Origin: an uncultured Actinomycetota bacterium
Lineage (GTDB): Bacteria; Actinomycetota; Actinomycetes; Streptosporangiales; Streptosporangiaceae
Reading direction: 5' to 3'
DNA: 64,000 bases
Assembly: GCA_963753225.1 (NCBI GenBank)
Contig: CAVWBQ010000013.1
Coordinates: 167,041-231,040 of the forward strand
The notes below the pieces were generated by a model. The model was given only the letters and a program-made list of their open reading frames with translations, searched no databases and was not told the origin of the DNA. Position numbers and translations under genes: made by a program. Shown piece after piece: positions 22,245 to 47,920 of this stretch (the first letter of the stretch is position 1; every line of letters begins with the position of its first letter).

Positions 22245-25200
22245 GTGCCGGGATTCGAGCCGCTCCCCGCGCAGGTCGACCTGCCCGCGCTTGAGCTTCA
22301 GATACTGACCCGCTGGCAGGACGCGGGGATCTTCGAGCGATCACTGAAGCAGACCGAGGGCGGACCGAGCTGGATCTTCTACGAGGGACCGCCCACCGCC
22401 AACGGGATGCCTGGCGCGCACCACGTCGAGGCGCGCACGTTCAAGGACCTGTTCCCCAGGTTCAAGACCATGCAGGGGTTCCACGTCCCGCGCAAGGGCG
22501 GCTGGGACTGCCACGGGCTTCCGGTCGAGGTCGCGGTGGAGAAGGAACTTGGCTTCACCGGCAAGCGGGACATCGAGGCGTACGGGGTCGCCGAGTTTAA
22601 CGCGCGCTGCCGCGAGTCCGTGCTCAGGCACGTCGACGCGTGGCTGGAAATGTCCCGGCGGATGGGTTACTGGGCCGACACCGACAATGCCTACCGGACC
22701 ATGGACCCCAGCTACATCGAGTCGGTCTGGTGGTCGCTCAAGGTCGTGTTCGACGCCGGGCTCCTGGTCCGTGACCACCGGATCAGCCCGTACTGCCCCC
22801 GCTGCGGCACGCCGCTGTCCGACGCCGAACTCGGCCAGCCCGACGTCTACCAGATCGTCTCCGACCCGGCCGTCACGGTCAGGTTCCGGCTGCGCGCGCT
22901 GCCGGAGGGCTCGCCGCGTGAGCTCGAGGGGGCCGACCTGCTCGTCTGGACGACCACGCCGTGGACGCTGGTAGCCAACACCGCGGTGGCGGTCCATCCG
23001 GACGCGACCTACGTGGTGGCGCGCAAGTCGCGGGACGGCGACCGGGTCGTGGTCGCCGACGACCTGTTCGCCAGGGTGCTCGGCGACGGCTGGCACGTCG
23101 CCGCCAGGTTCAGCGGACAGGCGCTGGTCGGGGCGAGTTACCAGCGCCCGTTCGGCCTCATCGAGATTCCCGACGCTCACATCGTCGTTCCAGGGTCATT
23201 CGTGACCACGCAGGACGGCACCGGGCTGGTCCACCTGGCGCCGGCGTTCGGCGCTGACGACATGACCGCCTCGCGCGCGCACGGCCTGCCCGTGGTCAAC
23301 CCGATCCGGCCGGACGGGCGGTTCGAGGACGACGTACCGCTGGTCGGCGGGATGTTCTTCAAGGAAGCCGACCGGCGGCTGATCGACGACCTCGACGACC
23401 GCGGGCTGCTGTTCCGGTCCGAACGGCACGAGCACAGCTACCCGCACTGCTGGCGGTGCGGCACCCTGCTGCTCTACTACGCGGTGCCCTCGTGGTACAT
23501 CAGGACCACCGCGATCAAGGACAGGCTGCTGGCCGAGAACGAGCGGACCAACTGGTACCCGGCGACGGTCAAGGATGGCCGGTACGGCGAGTGGTTGCGG
23601 AACAACGTGGACTGGGCGCTGTCGCGGACCAGGTACTGGGGCACGCCGCTTCCCCTGTGGGAGTGCTCGCAGTCGCACCTGACCTGCGTCGGCTCGCTGG
23701 CCGAGTTGTCCGCGCTGGCCGGGCGTGACCTGACCCGGCTCGACCCGCACCGGCCGTACGTGGATTCGGTCACGTTCACGTGCCCTGCCTGCGACGGCGA
23801 GGCGCGGCGGGTGCCCGAGGTGATCGACGTCTGGTACGACTCCGGCTCGATGCCGTTCGCGCAGTTCGGCGCGCCGTGGTCTGGGCTGGCCGAATTCGAG
23901 GCGTCGTACCCGGCCCAGTTCATCTGCGAGGCGCTGGACCAGACCCGGGGCTGGTTCTACTCGCTGATGGCCGTGGGGACGCTGGTGTTCGGACGTTCGG
24001 CGTACGAGAACGTGGTGTGCGTCGGGCTGCTCGTCGATGAGACCGGCCGCAAGATGAGCAAGCACCTGGGCAACGTGCTGGAGCCGATCCCGCTCATGGA
24101 CGCGCACGGCGCCGACGCGCTGCGCTGGTTCTTCGCGGCCTCCGGCTCGCCGTGGGGCGCCCGGCGGGTCGGGCACGACGTGCTCAGCGAGATCGTCAGG
24201 AAGGTGCTGCTCACCTACTGGAATACCGCGTCGTTCCTGGTGCTCTACGCGAACGCGGGCGGCTGGAGTCTGGCTACGGCCGCCGAGGTTCCGATGGCGG
24301 ACCGGCCGCTGCTCGACCGGTGGATGCTCAGCGAGCTGCACGCGGTGACGCGCGACGTCACGTCGTCGCTGGAGGACTTCGACACCGCCGCGGCCGGCCT
24401 GCGGCTCACGATGTTCATCGACGACCTGTCCAACTGGTACGTACGCCGGTCGCGGCGGCGGTTCTGGGATGGTCCTGGTTCTGCCGATGGCGCAGCGGCA
24501 TTCGCCACGCTGTACGAGTGCGTGACCACCTTGACGCTGCTGCTGGCGCCGTTCGTGCCGTTCGTGACCGACTACGTTCTGGGGCGTGCTGCGCCGCGCC
24601 GGGGCGCCGGAGTCCGTGCACCTGGCGTCGTGGCCTGCTGCTGAGGAGTCGCTGGTCGATTCGGAGCTGTCGGAACAGATGGCGCTGGCGCGGCGGCTGG
24701 TCGAGCTGGGACGTTCGGCCCGGTCGGGGGCTTCGGTGCGGACCAGGCAGCCGCTGCGGCGCGCGCTGATCGGGGCGGCCGGCTTCGACGCGCTGCCGCT
24801 TGAGCTGCGGTCGCTGATCGCGGCGGAGCTCAACGTGGCGTCGCTCTCCGTGCTGGGGCCGGCGGACGGGGAACTGGTCGACTACGCGGTCAAGCCGAAC
24901 TTCCGCGCGCTCGGCCGCCGGTTCGGCGCTCAGACGCCTTCCGTGGCGGCCGCGATCGCCGCCGTGCCCGCCGCCGAGGTCGCCGCCGCGGTGCTGGCGG
25001 GCGGCACGGTCACCGTTCCGGTGGCTGACGGCCCGGCCGTTTCCGTCGGCCCGGACGACGTGATCGTGACCCAGACGCCGCGGGCGGGCTGGGCGGTGGC
25101 CACCGACGCGGGCGAGACTGTGGCCATCGACACCACGATCACCCCGGAACTGCGGCGCGAAGGGCTCGCGCGCGAGGCCATCCGGCTCATCCAGGAGGCA

Positions 25201-25473
25201 CGCAAGAGCGACGGCCTGGACGTCACCGACCGGATCGCGCTGCTCTGGTCGGCTCTTGACCCTGCCGGCGCTGCCGGCGCTGCTGGCCCTGCGGGCGCTG
25301 CCGGCCGGGAACTGGCGGAGGCGCTGACCCGGCACGCCGCGCTGATCGCGGGCGAGGTACTGGCAGTGGAGTTCGGCCCGGCCGAGGCTGATGTGGCTGG
25401 GCTGGGGTCTGATGACGTGCGGGAACACGCGGACGAGGAACTGGGCCTGCGGTTCTGGCTCAGGCGGGTCTGA
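22245..25473 (+). pseudogene. ileS: isoleucine--tRNA ligase; reading frame broken by one extra nucleotide near 24579
   Basis: The 22245..24578 frame carries the class I motifs (PPTANGMPGAHHV, KMSKHLGN). The 24580..25473 frame continues ...WGVLRRAGAPESVHLASWP... Skipping C24579 gives a seamless FVTDYV-WGVLRR junction and a product of about 1075 aa. Confidence 0.9.
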
Positions 25474-25701
25474 ACCGCTCGGCTTGCTGCCGAAACTTGG
25501 CGCATGGGAACTGGCAGTATGGCGCCGCGCGGGCACAGAAACGCTTCAGCGACTCTGGCACCGCCCGTACCACGCTCATACTGCATGGTTGCCGCAACCA
25601 TGTCGCTAGGGGGGCGCGTCAGAAGATAACCCGTCGCGTCGGGATTTCTGGCGTGCTGATGCGGTAACCGCTGGGTCGATGGGCCGTTGGTCCGGTTAGA
25701 G

Positions 25702-26038
25702 AAATCATGAGCCACTGCGTGGCTCTGCCGCAGGTGATGGAAACTGGGTCCCTTGCCGCCGCGGGCGGGTGCGGGTGGTGACGGGCTGGGGTCTTTTGCG
25801 GTGTCCGGGCTGCGGGGCCGGGCGCGGAGGGTGCAGGCTCGTGGCGGCTGCCGCCGGTCGTGACCGTTCCAGCCTGGGCCGTTCGAGGCCGTGTTAGAGA
25901 CAGGTCCTGAGGGCTCCCTTGCCGGGTAACCCCCGCTGCTGCTACGTGCGCGCGTGTCAGTCTCCTGTACTGACGGGGGCCCTGGCCGGCGGCGCGCCTA
26001 TCCCAGTCAGATGATGCCGCTGCAGGAGGTGGACGCAG
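25702..26038 (+). ncRNA. candidate bridge/seek RNA in the IS110 5' non-coding leader
   Basis: A leader of about 340 nt lies upstream of the transposase. It contains words identical to the insertion junctions. gggccgtt (25876-83) plus gttagag (25893-99) match the left junction gggccgttggtccggttagag. cgtgtcag (25953-60) matches the right junction ccgtgtcag|ccggacc. It also has local hairpins such as gtcag...ctgac (25956-25974). Confidence 0.25.
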
Positions 26039-27352
26039 GTGAGAGTGCTGTATGAGCATGTCGCCGGGATCGACGTGCACAAGAACATGATCAAGGTCGC
26101 GATCCGGTCCCCGGGTGAGAAGCCGTGGACCCGCACGACCGAGATCCTGGAGTTCCGCACGTTTTACGGGGTGCTGCAGGAGATGGCCCGCCTGCTGCGC
26201 CGCCGCGGGGTGACGCACGTGGTGATGGAGGCGTCCGGGATCTATACCGACCCGGTGTATTACGCGCTCGCCGAGCAGGACTTCACCGAGGTCGCGGTGG
26301 TCAACCCGGCGCACGCCAGGGCGCTGAAGGGCCATAAGACCGACGCGGCGGACTGCCGGCGGCTGGCGGAACTGTTCGAGTGCGGGCTGCTGCGCGGCTC
26401 GTATATCCCGCCGGCGGAGCTGAGGGAGGTGCGGGACCTGACCCGGTACCGGATGAAGACGGTGCAGGCCCGCACCTCGGAGATCCAGCGGCTTGCCAAG
26501 GCGCTGGAGTCGGCCGGCATCAAGCTCGGCTCGGTTGCCAGCGACATTACCGGCAAGTCCGCCACGGCGATGATCGATTCGCTGATCGACGGTGAGCGCC
26601 GCGGTGCCGTGCTGGCGGACCTGGCCAAAGGCCGGATGCGGACCGCGGGCAAGCTGGCTGACCTGTCGATGGCCCTGACCGGCCGGTTCACCGGGCATCA
26701 CGCGCTGATGTGCCGGCTGCACCGGGACCGGATCGCCGGCCTGGACGCCGCCGTGGCTGACCTGGACGACCAGATCGCGGGCCGGGCCGGGCGCTGGCAG
26801 CGGGAACTGGACCTGCTCAAGACCATCCCCGCGTTCGGCAACGTGGTCGCGCAGGCGTGGCTGGCCGAGATCGGCCCGGCCCCGCACCGGCACTTCGCCA
26901 GCCACGAGAAGCTGGCCTCCTGGGTCACGCTCTGCCCGGGCAACAACATCAGCGCCCGCAAGCGCAAGCACGGCCGCACCGGCGACGCCGGCACCTACAT
27001 CAAGCCGGTGCTCATCCAGGCCGCCTGGAACGCCATCCGCACCAAAGGGCGGCTGCAGGCCCGCTACAGCCGGCTGGTCCGCCGGTTCGGCGGAGACAAG
27101 AACCCCGCCGCGAAGAAGAAGGCCATCACCGCGATCGCGCACACCCTGCTCAAGATCGCCTACCAGGTCCTCAAGAGCGGCACCCCCTACCAGGACCTGG
27201 GCGCGGACTTCTACACCCGCCGGGAATCACCCGACCAGCAGCGCGCCTACCTGGAACGACGGCTCCAGAAGCTCTATCCCGGCTGCGCCATCACCATCAC
27301 CATCAGCCCGCCGGAGGCCGTCTTAACATCCACCGCCAGCACCACACCCTGA
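26039..27352 (+). CDS. IS110-family transposase (DEDD/RuvC-like N-domain plus Tnp C-domain)
   Basis: 437 aa: AGIDVHKNMIKVAI...HVVMEASGIY...VAVVNPAHARALKGHKTDAADCRRLAE...LLKTIPAFGNVVAQAWLAEIGP...FASHEKLASWVTLCPGNNISA. Confidence 0.93.
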   Translation: MRVLYEHVAGIDVHKNMIKVAIRSPGEKPWTRTTEILEFRTFYGVLQEMARLLRRRGVTHVVMEASGIYTDPVYYALAEQDFTEVAVVNPAHARALKGHKTDAADCRRLAELFECGLLRGSYIPPAELREVRDLTRYRMKTVQARTSEIQRLAKALESAGIKLGSVASDITGKSATAMIDSLIDGERRGAVLADLAKGRMRTAGKLADLSMALTGRFTGHHALMCRLHRDRIAGLDAAVADLDDQIAGRAGRWQRELDLLKTIPAFGNVVAQAWLAEIGPAPHRHFASHEKLASWVTLCPGNNISARKRKHGRTGDAGTYIKPVLIQAAWNAIRTKGRLQARYSRLVRRFGGDKNPAAKKKAITAIAHTLLKIAYQVLKSGTPYQDLGADFYTRRESPDQQRAYLERRLQKLYPGCAITITISPPEAVLTSTASTTP

Positions 27353-27814
27353 TCCCCGCAGCACCGGAGCCGCCGCCGAACCGGCACCCCCGGCCCGCCC
27401 CCGCCGGACAAACCAGCGCGACCACGCAGCCCTCGCCACCGCCCGGGCCAGGGTTCGCTCCCGCACGCCCACCGGGACCCAGTTTCCGTGTCAGCCGGAC
27501 CAACGGCACATCGACCCAGAACCGCCCTGTGCCGCGGCCGCGGCTATCGCATCGCCGCTCGCACCCGAGCTCAGACCAGCGTGCTAATAACTGACGCGCA
27601 CTAGCTGCATGGACGAGGCAGCCATGCAGTATGAACGGGCGCGCCCGGCCCAACGGCGGAGGTATCAGCGGTCACTGGTGAGGCCCGGCAGCGTACGCGC
27701 ACCAGGATGTGGGGGCCAGAGCCCGCGCCGCGGCCCGCCATGATCAACGTGAACTCGCCGGCAGCGCAGCAATCGGGGATCTGGGATCAGCGCCGGAGCG
27801 GGTAGACACGCCTG

Positions 27815-28864
27815 CTACTCGGGAGACTTATCGGGCTGGTCCGGAAGGCAGGCGCGGCAGGGAGTGCAGCCGACTTTCCGCGCGGCGGCGAGGGTCATCT
27901 TGTCCAGGTCGCTGTCGCCCATGAAACGAATGAGGATGCAGTGGGCGTTGTGATACCTCGGAACGCCCGGGACCACGGTTACCTCCATGGTGGGGTCCGG
28001 GACCGCGGGTTCGGCTTCGGCGGCTTGCTCGTCCTGCTCGGGCCGCTCGGCCTGCGAGGTTGCGGGAGCGCTACCGGCAGTGGTGGCGCCGGGGACCAAC
28101 GTCAGTTCGGGCTCGGAAGCCGGGTCAGCGCCGGAAACCGGTTCGGGCCCGGGAGCGGGCTCCGGCGGCTGTTCCTTGGCCGGGGGCTGGTCTCGCTCGG
28201 CGGTCGGCGAGGGTTCGGCGGTGTCCTCCTCGCGGGGCGGGACAGGCTTCACGACCGGCTGGGGTGACGTGGGAGGCGCGGCTGACGGGGCGGGGGCTTC
28301 CGCGGCGGCGGGCGGGGCCTGGATGGTGTTGTCGCGAAACTCCCAGGCACCTGGTGCCGACGGCTCCCGGCGCGGGGTGAACGCGGCGGGGGCACGCGGC
28401 ACGTCGTCCGGGCGTGAGCCCGGCGGCTGGGCGCCCGGGCGTGACTCGGGCTTGGGCCTAGGTGCCTCGGTGGCGGGCAGGTATCCGGGACGGGACGGGC
28501 CCGAAGGGGCCGCGGCGGGCCAGCCGGATCCGGCGGTGGCCGGGGCAGACCCGGCCGGGACCGACCCGGCCGCCGGGACCGACCCGGCCGGGACCGGCAC
28601 CTGCGGCGGCTGGGCCTGTGACGTCGCGGCCTGTGACGTCGCGGCCTCGGGGGCCGCGGCTTGCGCGGCGGGCCCCTGTGCGCTGGTTTCGGCCGTCTTG
28701 CCGGTTAGCTCACGCCAGTTGACGGCCGCGCCTATGCCCAGCGCCAGCAGGGCCACGCCACTCACGCCGATCGCGATGTAGACGAGCAAGAGCTTGCTCG
28801 TGACTACACCGGCGACCAGCAATCCGACCGCGACGACAACGAGAAACGCACTGAAGCGAATCAC
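27815..28864 (-). CDS. membrane protein with a long Pro/Ala-rich linker and a C-terminal His/Cys motif
   Basis: 349 aa with GTG start. It has two N-terminal TM helices, a low-complexity linker of about 230 aa, and a C-terminus VVPGVPRYHNAHCILIRFMGDSDLDKMTLAAARKVGCTPCRACLP (H-x3-C ... C-x2-C). Confidence 0.6.
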   Translation of the reverse strand: MIRFSAFLVVVAVGLLVAGVVTSKLLLVYIAIGVSGVALLALGIGAAVNWRELTGKTAETSAQGPAAQAAAPEAATSQAATSQAQPPQVPVPAGSVPAAGSVPAGSAPATAGSGWPAAAPSGPSRPGYLPATEAPRPKPESRPGAQPPGSRPDDVPRAPAAFTPRREPSAPGAWEFRDNTIQAPPAAAEAPAPSAAPPTSPQPVVKPVPPREEDTAEPSPTAERDQPPAKEQPPEPAPGPEPVSGADPASEPELTLVPGATTAGSAPATSQAERPEQDEQAAEAEPAVPDPTMEVTVVPGVPRYHNAHCILIRFMGDSDLDKMTLAAARKVGCTPCRACLPDQPDKSPE

Positions 28865-47612: not shown

Positions 47613-47920
47613 AACCGCCATGATGTGACATCGTGACGGTTAGCTTAGGTAAGCTTAGCTAACTGCGCGTCAGTTATTAACACGCGGGTTTGATCTCGGG
47701 TGCGAGCGGGCGGGCGGTAGCCGCGGCGGCGGTGCGGGGCGGCGGTAGCCGCGGCGGTACGGGGCGGCGGTTCTGGGTCGAAGTGCCGGTGGTCCGGTTC
47801 TAGCCGGACCAACGGCCCATCGACCCAGCGGCTACCACATCAGCGCGCCAGAAATCCCGAAGCGACGGGTTATTTTAAGACGCGCGCTTATAACCGCAAC
47901 GATGTGACATCGTGGCGGTT
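47613..47920. repeat. copy B (uninterrupted) of the long-palindrome repeat element
   Basis: Terminal near-palindromic hairpins: aaccgccatgatgt-g-acatcgtgacggtt (47613-41) and aaccgcaacgatgt-g-acatcgtggcggtt (47892-920). The two arms are imperfectly complementary to each other around the apex ggtccgg-ttctag-ccggacc (47791-47810). The left arm carries an internal tandem duplication of about 26 bp (about 47712-47764). Confidence 0.85.

Follow-up and report, generated by a model that had tools for sequence, protein, structure and literature searches.

The closest described relatives of the element reported here fall into two groups. In IS621/ISEc21 of Escherichia coli, members of the IS110 group, the bridge RNA is 177 nucleotides (nt) long (PMC11208160, PMC11208158), and the target loop of IS621 carries its bottom-strand guide (left target guide, LTG, 9 nt) 5' of an inner stem-loop, with the top-strand guide and handshake 3' of it (PMC11208158). 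Elements of the IS1111 type, including ISEc11, ISKpn4 and ISPa11, have subterminal inverted repeats of 11-13 base pairs (bp) with a 7-bp terminal extension on one side, and carry the non-coding region with the seekRNA on the downstream side of the transposase, with rare upstream exceptions such as ISMtsp17 (PMC11187229). Guide order separates the types as well: the top-strand complement comes first in IS1111-type seekRNAs, the reverse of IS110-type ISEc21 (Siddiquee et al. 2024, PMC11187229). ISPpu9 and ISPpu10 of Pseudomonas putida are multi-copy elements reported only from repetitive extragenic palindromes (REPs) (PMC12288879; 10.64898/2026.03.19.712850). Here we describe an insertion sequence (IS) in 64,000 nt of high-G+C actinobacterial DNA from an uncultured member of the Streptosporangiaceae (assembly GCA_963753225.1, contig CAVWBQ010000013.1, positions 167,041 to 231,040); this whole stretch is called the window, and all positions are counted within it. 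The element is very probably an autonomous IS of the IS110/IS1111 family whose left end encodes a bridge (seek) RNA used by its DEDD recombinase for site choice. Our analysis provides the protein family, nine site-specific insertions, the covariation of an RNA structure, and the covariation of guides with flanks and with element ends (Table 1).

Alignment with an uninterrupted copy shows that the element interrupts a long palindromic repeat at its apex, where loop meets stem, in agreement with the first-pass annotation of this DNA, which had proposed an IS110-family element at such an apex and AG at both junctions. The borders proposed there, 25696-27494 (at most 1,799 bp), had to be moved to 25702-27494 (1,793 bp), as the first 6 bp are the target loop TTAGAG. 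This hexamer is target DNA, the loop of a minority repeat variant, and not IS DNA, because the same loop is found uninterrupted 15 times in the genome. Since the AG at 27493-27494 repeats the core AG at 25700-25701, the borders can equally be written 25700-27492. The repeat at 47664-47885, previously paired with the filled site as its natural empty counterpart, has a CTAGAA loop and is therefore a non-cognate relative of the target, not its exact empty-site allele. The IS ends, AAATCATG... and ...CGTGTCAG, show no inverted-repeat relation, and only AG is common to both junctions; the left and right non-coding ends measure 337 and 142 nt.

The predicted protein places the element in the IS110 family. 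It matches PF01548 (DEDD_Tnp_IS110, RuvC-like; E = 4e-20) and PF02371 (Transposase_20; E = 6e-16), and scores 226 bits with the NCBIfam model NF033542 ('IS110 family RNA-guided transposase'; cut-off 140). Similarity to the solved IS621 and ISCro4 recombinases is weak and N-terminal only (E about 1e-7; IS621, E = 2e-7), with DEDD residues D12, E64, D102 and D105 alignable to both; position 305 is the candidate catalytic serine. Plasmid matches to the transposase are annotated merely as 'IS110 family transposase', with no finer subgroup label.

BLAST of the element against the whole assembly returned nine copies. Where the first-pass annotation had allowed for copies with other ends or unrelated targets, all nine share the same ends and the TTAGAG apex target. 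Their common flanks read ...TGGTCCGG TTAGAG / AAATCATGAGCC ... CCGTGTCAG / C(C or A)GGACCAACGG..., slashes marking the junctions, and every copy sits at GTTAGAG/C.G in a single orientation relative to the loop. The guide regions described below are identical in 9/9 copies, the sole difference in the leader being at 25786. A census found 129 uninterrupted palindromic repeats, with loops counted in both orientations: 71 have the apex loop CTAGAA, 15 TTAGAG (in addition to the nine occupied), 12 TTAGAA, 11 TAAGAG and 10 ATAGAA, with rarer loops in the remainder. Occupancy is thus 9/24 for TTAGAG-type repeats versus 0/~114 for repeats with other loops (Fisher p = 3.4e-8). Bases beyond the loop matter too. 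Right-flank position 1, the first base after AG, is C in all filled sites and G or A in 10/15 empty TTAGAG sites; two further empty sites deviate at position 3, and filled sites have C or A at position 2. From the comparison of occupied with empty sites it follows that the element reads at least G-TTAGAG-C.G.

Nine copies at least 99.5% identical, in a family of about 140 repeats able to recombine, might instead have spread by duplication or recombination of repeat-plus-IS units, in which case a common target would say nothing about targeting. We consider this extremely improbable: flanks outside the palindrome core differ among the nine copies, the IS is found both ways round with respect to the asymmetric outer portion of the repeat, and relatives in other genomes follow the same guide-flank rule at unrelated sites.

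The repeat family itself, with about 140 copies per genome, has a conserved 25-bp stem on each side of the 6-nt apex loop, and its loops come in discrete variants. In eight empty copies the base after TTAGAG is G and not C, a difference that disrupts both the first stem pair and the match to the IS guide; they may be either a subfamily or variants escaping insertion. Two of the nine copies have small lesions: on contig C23 (9828-11626) the C of the terminal GTCAG is missing, so that the right end reads GTGTAG, and on contig C16 (135744-137536) there is an in-frame 6-bp deletion at window positions 27288-27293.

The leader was compared with about 90 related elements from soil metagenomes and related genera. 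Relatives came from same-genus genomes (transposases 50-91% identical), from a metagenome scan (80 further loci, 77-95% identity) and from other genera of the same order (transposases 37-50% identical). Leader alignments comprised A1 (14 sequences), A2 (64 distinct leaders) and A4, a more diverged set. A1 and A2 yield a four-stem consensus, and the reading of the leader as encoding a structured RNA, a covarying three-way junction, is supported by these alignments. In A2, standard pairs occupy 96.6% of cells, compared with 39-50% when the 3' partners are slid; 77 cells are changed on both sides, and the covariation score was reached by 0/500 shuffles, so that the structured model whose misfit had been named as a danger to the proposal fits. 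Compensatory changes occur in all four stems in both A1 and A4, affecting 26/34 predicted pairs in A4, an alignment that was fitted to the model and so favours the structure. The covariance model R1 (156 positions, 33 pairs), built from A2, finds all nine genomic copies at 142.8 bits, and has full-length matches just upstream of the transposase in 31/42 loci from other genera with 37-50% identical transposases. One weak orphan match lies outside the window (contig C13, 14641-14794; 48.8 bits, E = 7e-5), with no transposase homologue detectable within 2 kb downstream. A hairpin GTCAG...CTGAC around the donor guide was rejected as a structural element, not being kept in relatives.

The two arms of this predicted RNA hold words that match the junctions of the element. 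In the target-binding arm, GTTAGAG, identical to the left flank plus core AG, follows the inner hairpin, and the ACA after it stands at the handshake position, its first base matching the first base of the IS. The first-pass annotation had noticed this leader echo of the left junction, and GTTAGAG stands; the other word it included, 'gggccgtt' (the GGGCCGTT echo), does not. That word lies in the hairpin TGGACCGTTCGAGGCCG, which is conserved among relatives despite unrelated targets, so the alignments mark the echo as a coincidence with a conserved hairpin and not a guide. In the donor-binding arm, where a small hairpin immediately precedes the donor guide, the word echoing the right end, also seen earlier, equals the final 8 nt of the IS. 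By chance, any particular 7-mer should occur about 0.02 times in the 337-nt leader. What carries the guide reading beyond chance is that the words covary with the flanks across relatives, and this is the decisive evidence.

A word of 7-9 nt ending in AG, located after the inner hairpin, equals each relative's own left flank plus AG. We counted about 30 different left-guide words, including GTTAGAG in the window element and AAAAGAG, AAGTAAG, GTTTCAG, CTGAAAAG, TGATTAG, GACAAAG and AGTAAAG elsewhere. The longest word common to the 3' loop strand and the element's own left junction averages 7.66 nt, versus 3.83 nt for mismatched pairings; it reaches at least 7 nt in 50/58 events but in only 27/3150 mismatched pairings (0.9%). 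The rule is also valid in diverged relatives. Bases 1-3 after AG are usually the first bases of the IS, and the first two agree in 23/24 diverged relatives (AC, AT, TC or TT).

The opposite strand of the target loop tracks the right flank, a statistical signal that is clear although not perfect. Over 48 insertions, the 9-nt strand before the inner hairpin forms on average 2.58/5 Watson-Crick pairs with the right flank, versus 1.43/5 for mismatched pairings, and complementarity of at least 3/5 was seen in 27/48 events versus 14% of mismatched pairings. Perfect cases include ACGCCCT with AGGGCGT, TGTCGCT with AGCGACA and AACTG with CAGTT; in the window element, GUUCCAGCC pairs with the core G and with right-flank positions 1, 3, 4 and 5. 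The donor word likewise covaries with the right end of the element (CGTATTAG, GTATCAG, GTCACAG, CGGATTAG, CGGATCAG and CCGGTCAG). Junction-like words are therefore not lost among relatives, as had been considered earlier, but fixed in position, with a sequence that shifts with each element's own flank and end. This combination is the hallmark of guide segments, and the proposal of a bridge RNA in the leader is well supported by structure and guide covariation across the roughly 90 relatives.

Some relatives depart from the common pattern. Elements with the same guides and the same left-flank word sometimes have unrelated right flanks (L035 versus L036; L059-L061 and L137; L084 and L097 versus L090-L105), which suggests insertions or rearrangements matching only the left target half; the title of a 2026 preprint (10.64898/2026.08.31.748434) uses the term 'half-match recombination'. 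In L121, L126 and L082, AA replaces AG at the end of both words (GAATTAA in the target arm, GTGTCAA in the donor arm), as if the core-binding positions of the two arms had changed in concert. In L050-L052, L017, L028, L025 and L009/L010, all from other genera, the donor-arm word ends in CCG and the target-arm word in AG; the donor-arm word did not locate the right ends of these elements.

Two alternatives to an RNA guide bear on these data. Under the first, the leader would be merely a structured 5' untranslated or regulatory region, the protein would choose the target by recognizing the repeat as a DNA hairpin, and the word matches would be incidental. The target is indeed a hairpin apex, and ISPpu10 reportedly requires a DNA stem-loop at the target besides RNA pairing (10.64898/2026.03.19.712850). 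The single-sequence minimum-free-energy fold of our leader is also no stabler than shuffles (z = +1.0), a comparison that is uninformative at 70% G+C, and contigs from RNA libraries contained leaders of relatives only. We nevertheless hold this explanation to be very unlikely: each of about 30 different loop words is the same as the left flank of its own element, flanks that are otherwise unrelated, the opposite loop strand tracks the right flank, and a protein-only model does not predict such covariation. Most relatives are not inserted in palindromes, and a structural (hairpin) requirement is for that reason not indicated here.

Under the second, the internal words would be DNA sites, subterminal copies of the junctions that are bound as DNA or that pair as single-stranded DNA. 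The element does have a 14-bp subterminal inverted repeat, its left copy 37 bp inside the left end, and its copies covary in relatives L032, L033, L034 and L035, so DNA-level recognition of the ends exists in some form. As an account of the words, we give this a very low probability: they lie in loops of a structure whose stems show compensatory changes, G-U pairs included, which fits RNA, and the two arms, inner hairpins and handshake bases mirror the solved IS621 bridge RNA (PMC11208158).

We therefore retain the bridge RNA, with the following mechanism proposed. The 337-nt left end would encode an RNA of about 146 nt with which the DEDD recombinase picks its insertion site. The internal loop of the target arm would present two guides: the 3' guide GUUAGAG, the same as left flank plus core AG, would pair with the bottom strand, and the 5' guide GUUCCAGCC, complementary to AG plus right flank, with the top strand. 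In the donor arm, CGUGUCAG would pair with the IS right end, which in a circular intermediate lies next to the left end. Recombination at the AG core common to both partners (CT on the opposite strand) would then insert the IS exactly where the loop ends and the stem begins. The guides match GTTAGAG/C.G, and only a minority variant of the repeat is therefore occupied. Transcription of the RNA, its binding by the recombinase, the formation of a circular intermediate and the chemistry of strand exchange would be as in IS621, ISEc11 and ISEc21 (PMC11208160, PMC11208158, PMC11187229), and we infer that transposition requires the bridge RNA.

Several observations weigh against this interpretation. 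The right-target guide is mismatched at right-flank position 2, and a C faces the core A; the mismatch at position 2 agrees with the C or A found there in filled sites and with empty sites deviating at position 1 or 3. A right-donor guide, which would complement AG and the beginning of the left end, was found neither among close relatives nor among diverged ones with different left ends, in a search that covered the donor arm, the strand before its inner hairpin and the region after the donor guide; one candidate, ATGAT at about 26027, was dropped as not conserved. An Rfam scan of 25000-28200 with E up to 10 gave no relevant match, only two chance hits outside the leader, so that of the covariance-model check suggested for the leader, R1 succeeded and the existing Rfam models did not. 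Neither the left end as integrated nor the natural junction of right and left ends in relative L063 showed a sigma-70-like promoter in a scan that models actinobacterial promoters poorly. Evidence from RNA libraries (metatranscriptomes) consists of leaders of relatives only, at 90-95% identity in two studies, where DNA carry-over is possible; it comes from Logan contigs, in which starts, ends and strand are unreadable, and amounts to a weak hint.

A hint of a transposition intermediate comes from the metagenome contig L063 (Ga0335081_10207830), in whose positions 1-40 the left end of a related element directly follows the last 25 nt of its right end (...TTTCCGTGTCAG/AAATCATGAGCC...); a junction like this, tandem or circular, is what such an intermediate would be expected to show. 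An exact-pattern scan found no junction of right end with left end in the genome contigs. One contig from a DNA run that skips the IS was rejected as an excision product, its extra G pointing to a paralogous empty TTAGAG/GCGGACC repeat. At the left end of the window element, the conserved hairpin is followed on the minus strand by ATGATTTCT and scores there as intrinsic-terminator-like; a second conserved stem, followed by GGGGTCTTTT (about 25767-25797), precedes the bridge RNA on the plus strand.

Table 1 Features of the insertion sequence and its target repeat (window positions; A1, leader alignment; R1, covariance model).
Feature	Position	Strand	Remarks
Palindromic repeat, left half	25577-25701	.	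Alignment with uninterrupted copy 47664-47885; same flank at 9/9 copies
Stem GGTCCGG, then loop TTAGAG	25689-25695, 25696-25701		End of left repeat half; core dinucleotide AG at 25700-25701
Insertion sequence, 1,793 bp	25702-27494	+	9 copies, identity at least 99.5%; border set by empty TTAGAG sites in genome
Conserved hairpin GAGCCAC-TGC-GTGGCTC	25709-25725	+	7 nt inside left end; A1 predicted pairs 11-14 with 20-23 kept in relatives
Subterminal inverted repeat, left copy GGAAACTGGGTCCC, 14 bp	25739-25752	+	Exact reverse complement of 27474-27487
Predicted bridge/seek RNA core, three-way junction	25849-25994	+	Covariation; R1 142.8 bits
Closing stem	25849-25858 with 25985-25994	+	Consensus of leader alignments
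Target-binding arm	Stem 25860-25865 with 25903-25907	+	Around hairpin 25875-25891
Target-loop 5' strand GTTCCAGCC	25866-25874	+	Candidate guide complementary to top strand of AG + right flank
Inner hairpin of target-binding arm, TGGGCC-GTTCGA-GGCCG	25875-25891	+	Nearly invariant in 64 relatives whatever the target
Target-loop 3' strand	25893-25902	+	GTTAGAG (25893-25899) identical to left flank + core AG; then ACA
Donor-binding arm	25908-25984	+	Stem 25908-25918 with 25976-25984; hairpin 25923-25935; compensatory stem changes
Candidate donor guide CGTGTCAG	25953-25960	+	Identical to last 8 nt of IS (27487-27494)
Transposase/recombinase gene, 437 amino acids	26039-27352	+	GTG start; GGAGG 10 nt upstream
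Subterminal inverted repeat, right copy GGGACCCAGTTTCC	27474-27487	+	7 nt from right end
Palindromic repeat, right half	27495-27633	.	Begins with stem CCGGACC
Uninterrupted repeat copy	47664-47885	-	Majority loop CTAGAA at 47798-47803; variant not targeted

The layout shares much with IS621: a DEDD recombinase with a Tnp domain, a non-coding RNA encoded ahead of the transposase in the left end, two arms in each of which an internal loop surrounds an inner hairpin, one guide equal to flank plus core and the other complementary to core plus opposite flank, handshake bases adjoining the target guide, a CT core (AG on the coding strand here) and repeated palindromes as natural targets, REPs in the case of IS621 (PMC11208160, PMC11208158). 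It differs in guide order, with the top-strand guide 5' and the 7-nt bottom-strand guide and handshake 3'; on the CT-core strand, the layout is that of IS621 with gene and RNA inverted. Unlike IS621, a common stem closes both arms into a three-way junction, the protein has 437 amino acids instead of 326, and a right-donor guide was not found in the search described above. The 14-bp subterminal inverted repeat also sets the element apart from the IS110 subgroup, in which such repeats are absent or 2-3 bp long.

Guide order and the inverted repeat with its 7-bp extension on one side are as in IS1111-type elements, of which ISPa11 also targets a REP (PMC11187229). In contrast to that type, the RNA lies upstream of the transposase, and the second inverted-repeat copy lies 37 bp inside the left end, not 3 bp. 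ISMtsp17, one of the rare exceptions, likewise has an upstream non-coding region (PMC11187229). ISPpu9 and ISPpu10 are similar in being, as reported, multi-copy and inserted in repeated palindromes, and different in host phylum, in repeat family and in our element's insertion at the loop/stem border of the apex. Judged by layout, the element resembles a mixture: IS110-like in its upstream RNA, and IS1111-like in guide order and inverted repeat.

The RNA-guided mechanism has been known since 2024, and palindrome targeting is well known in the family (IS621, ISPa11, ISPpu9 and ISPpu10); the element is a well-documented new example and not a new principle. For annotation, leaders of this kind can be found by a covariance model (R1), and IS borders can be read from the RNA loops. 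The mixed IS110/IS1111 layout may deserve specialist attention. It is possible, though on present evidence unlikely, that the actinobacterial lineage is a distinct architectural type between the IS110 and IS1111 groups, combining an upstream RNA, IS1111 guide order, a closing stem and a long inverted repeat. If so, it would document the move of the RNA module between ends, together with donor recognition based partly on protein or DNA structure, and the right donor half might be recognized via the inverted repeat or the conserved left-end hairpin instead of an RNA guide. In a single genome, 9 filled, 15 near-cognate empty and more than 100 non-cognate repeats form a natural single-base read-out of specificity, covering positions 1 and 6 of the loop as well as positions 1 and 3 of the right flank. 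Across its relatives, about 30 naturally reprogrammed guide words on one conserved scaffold amount to an existing guide code for a bridge recombinase from high-GC Actinomycetota, with an RNA layout unlike that of IS621.

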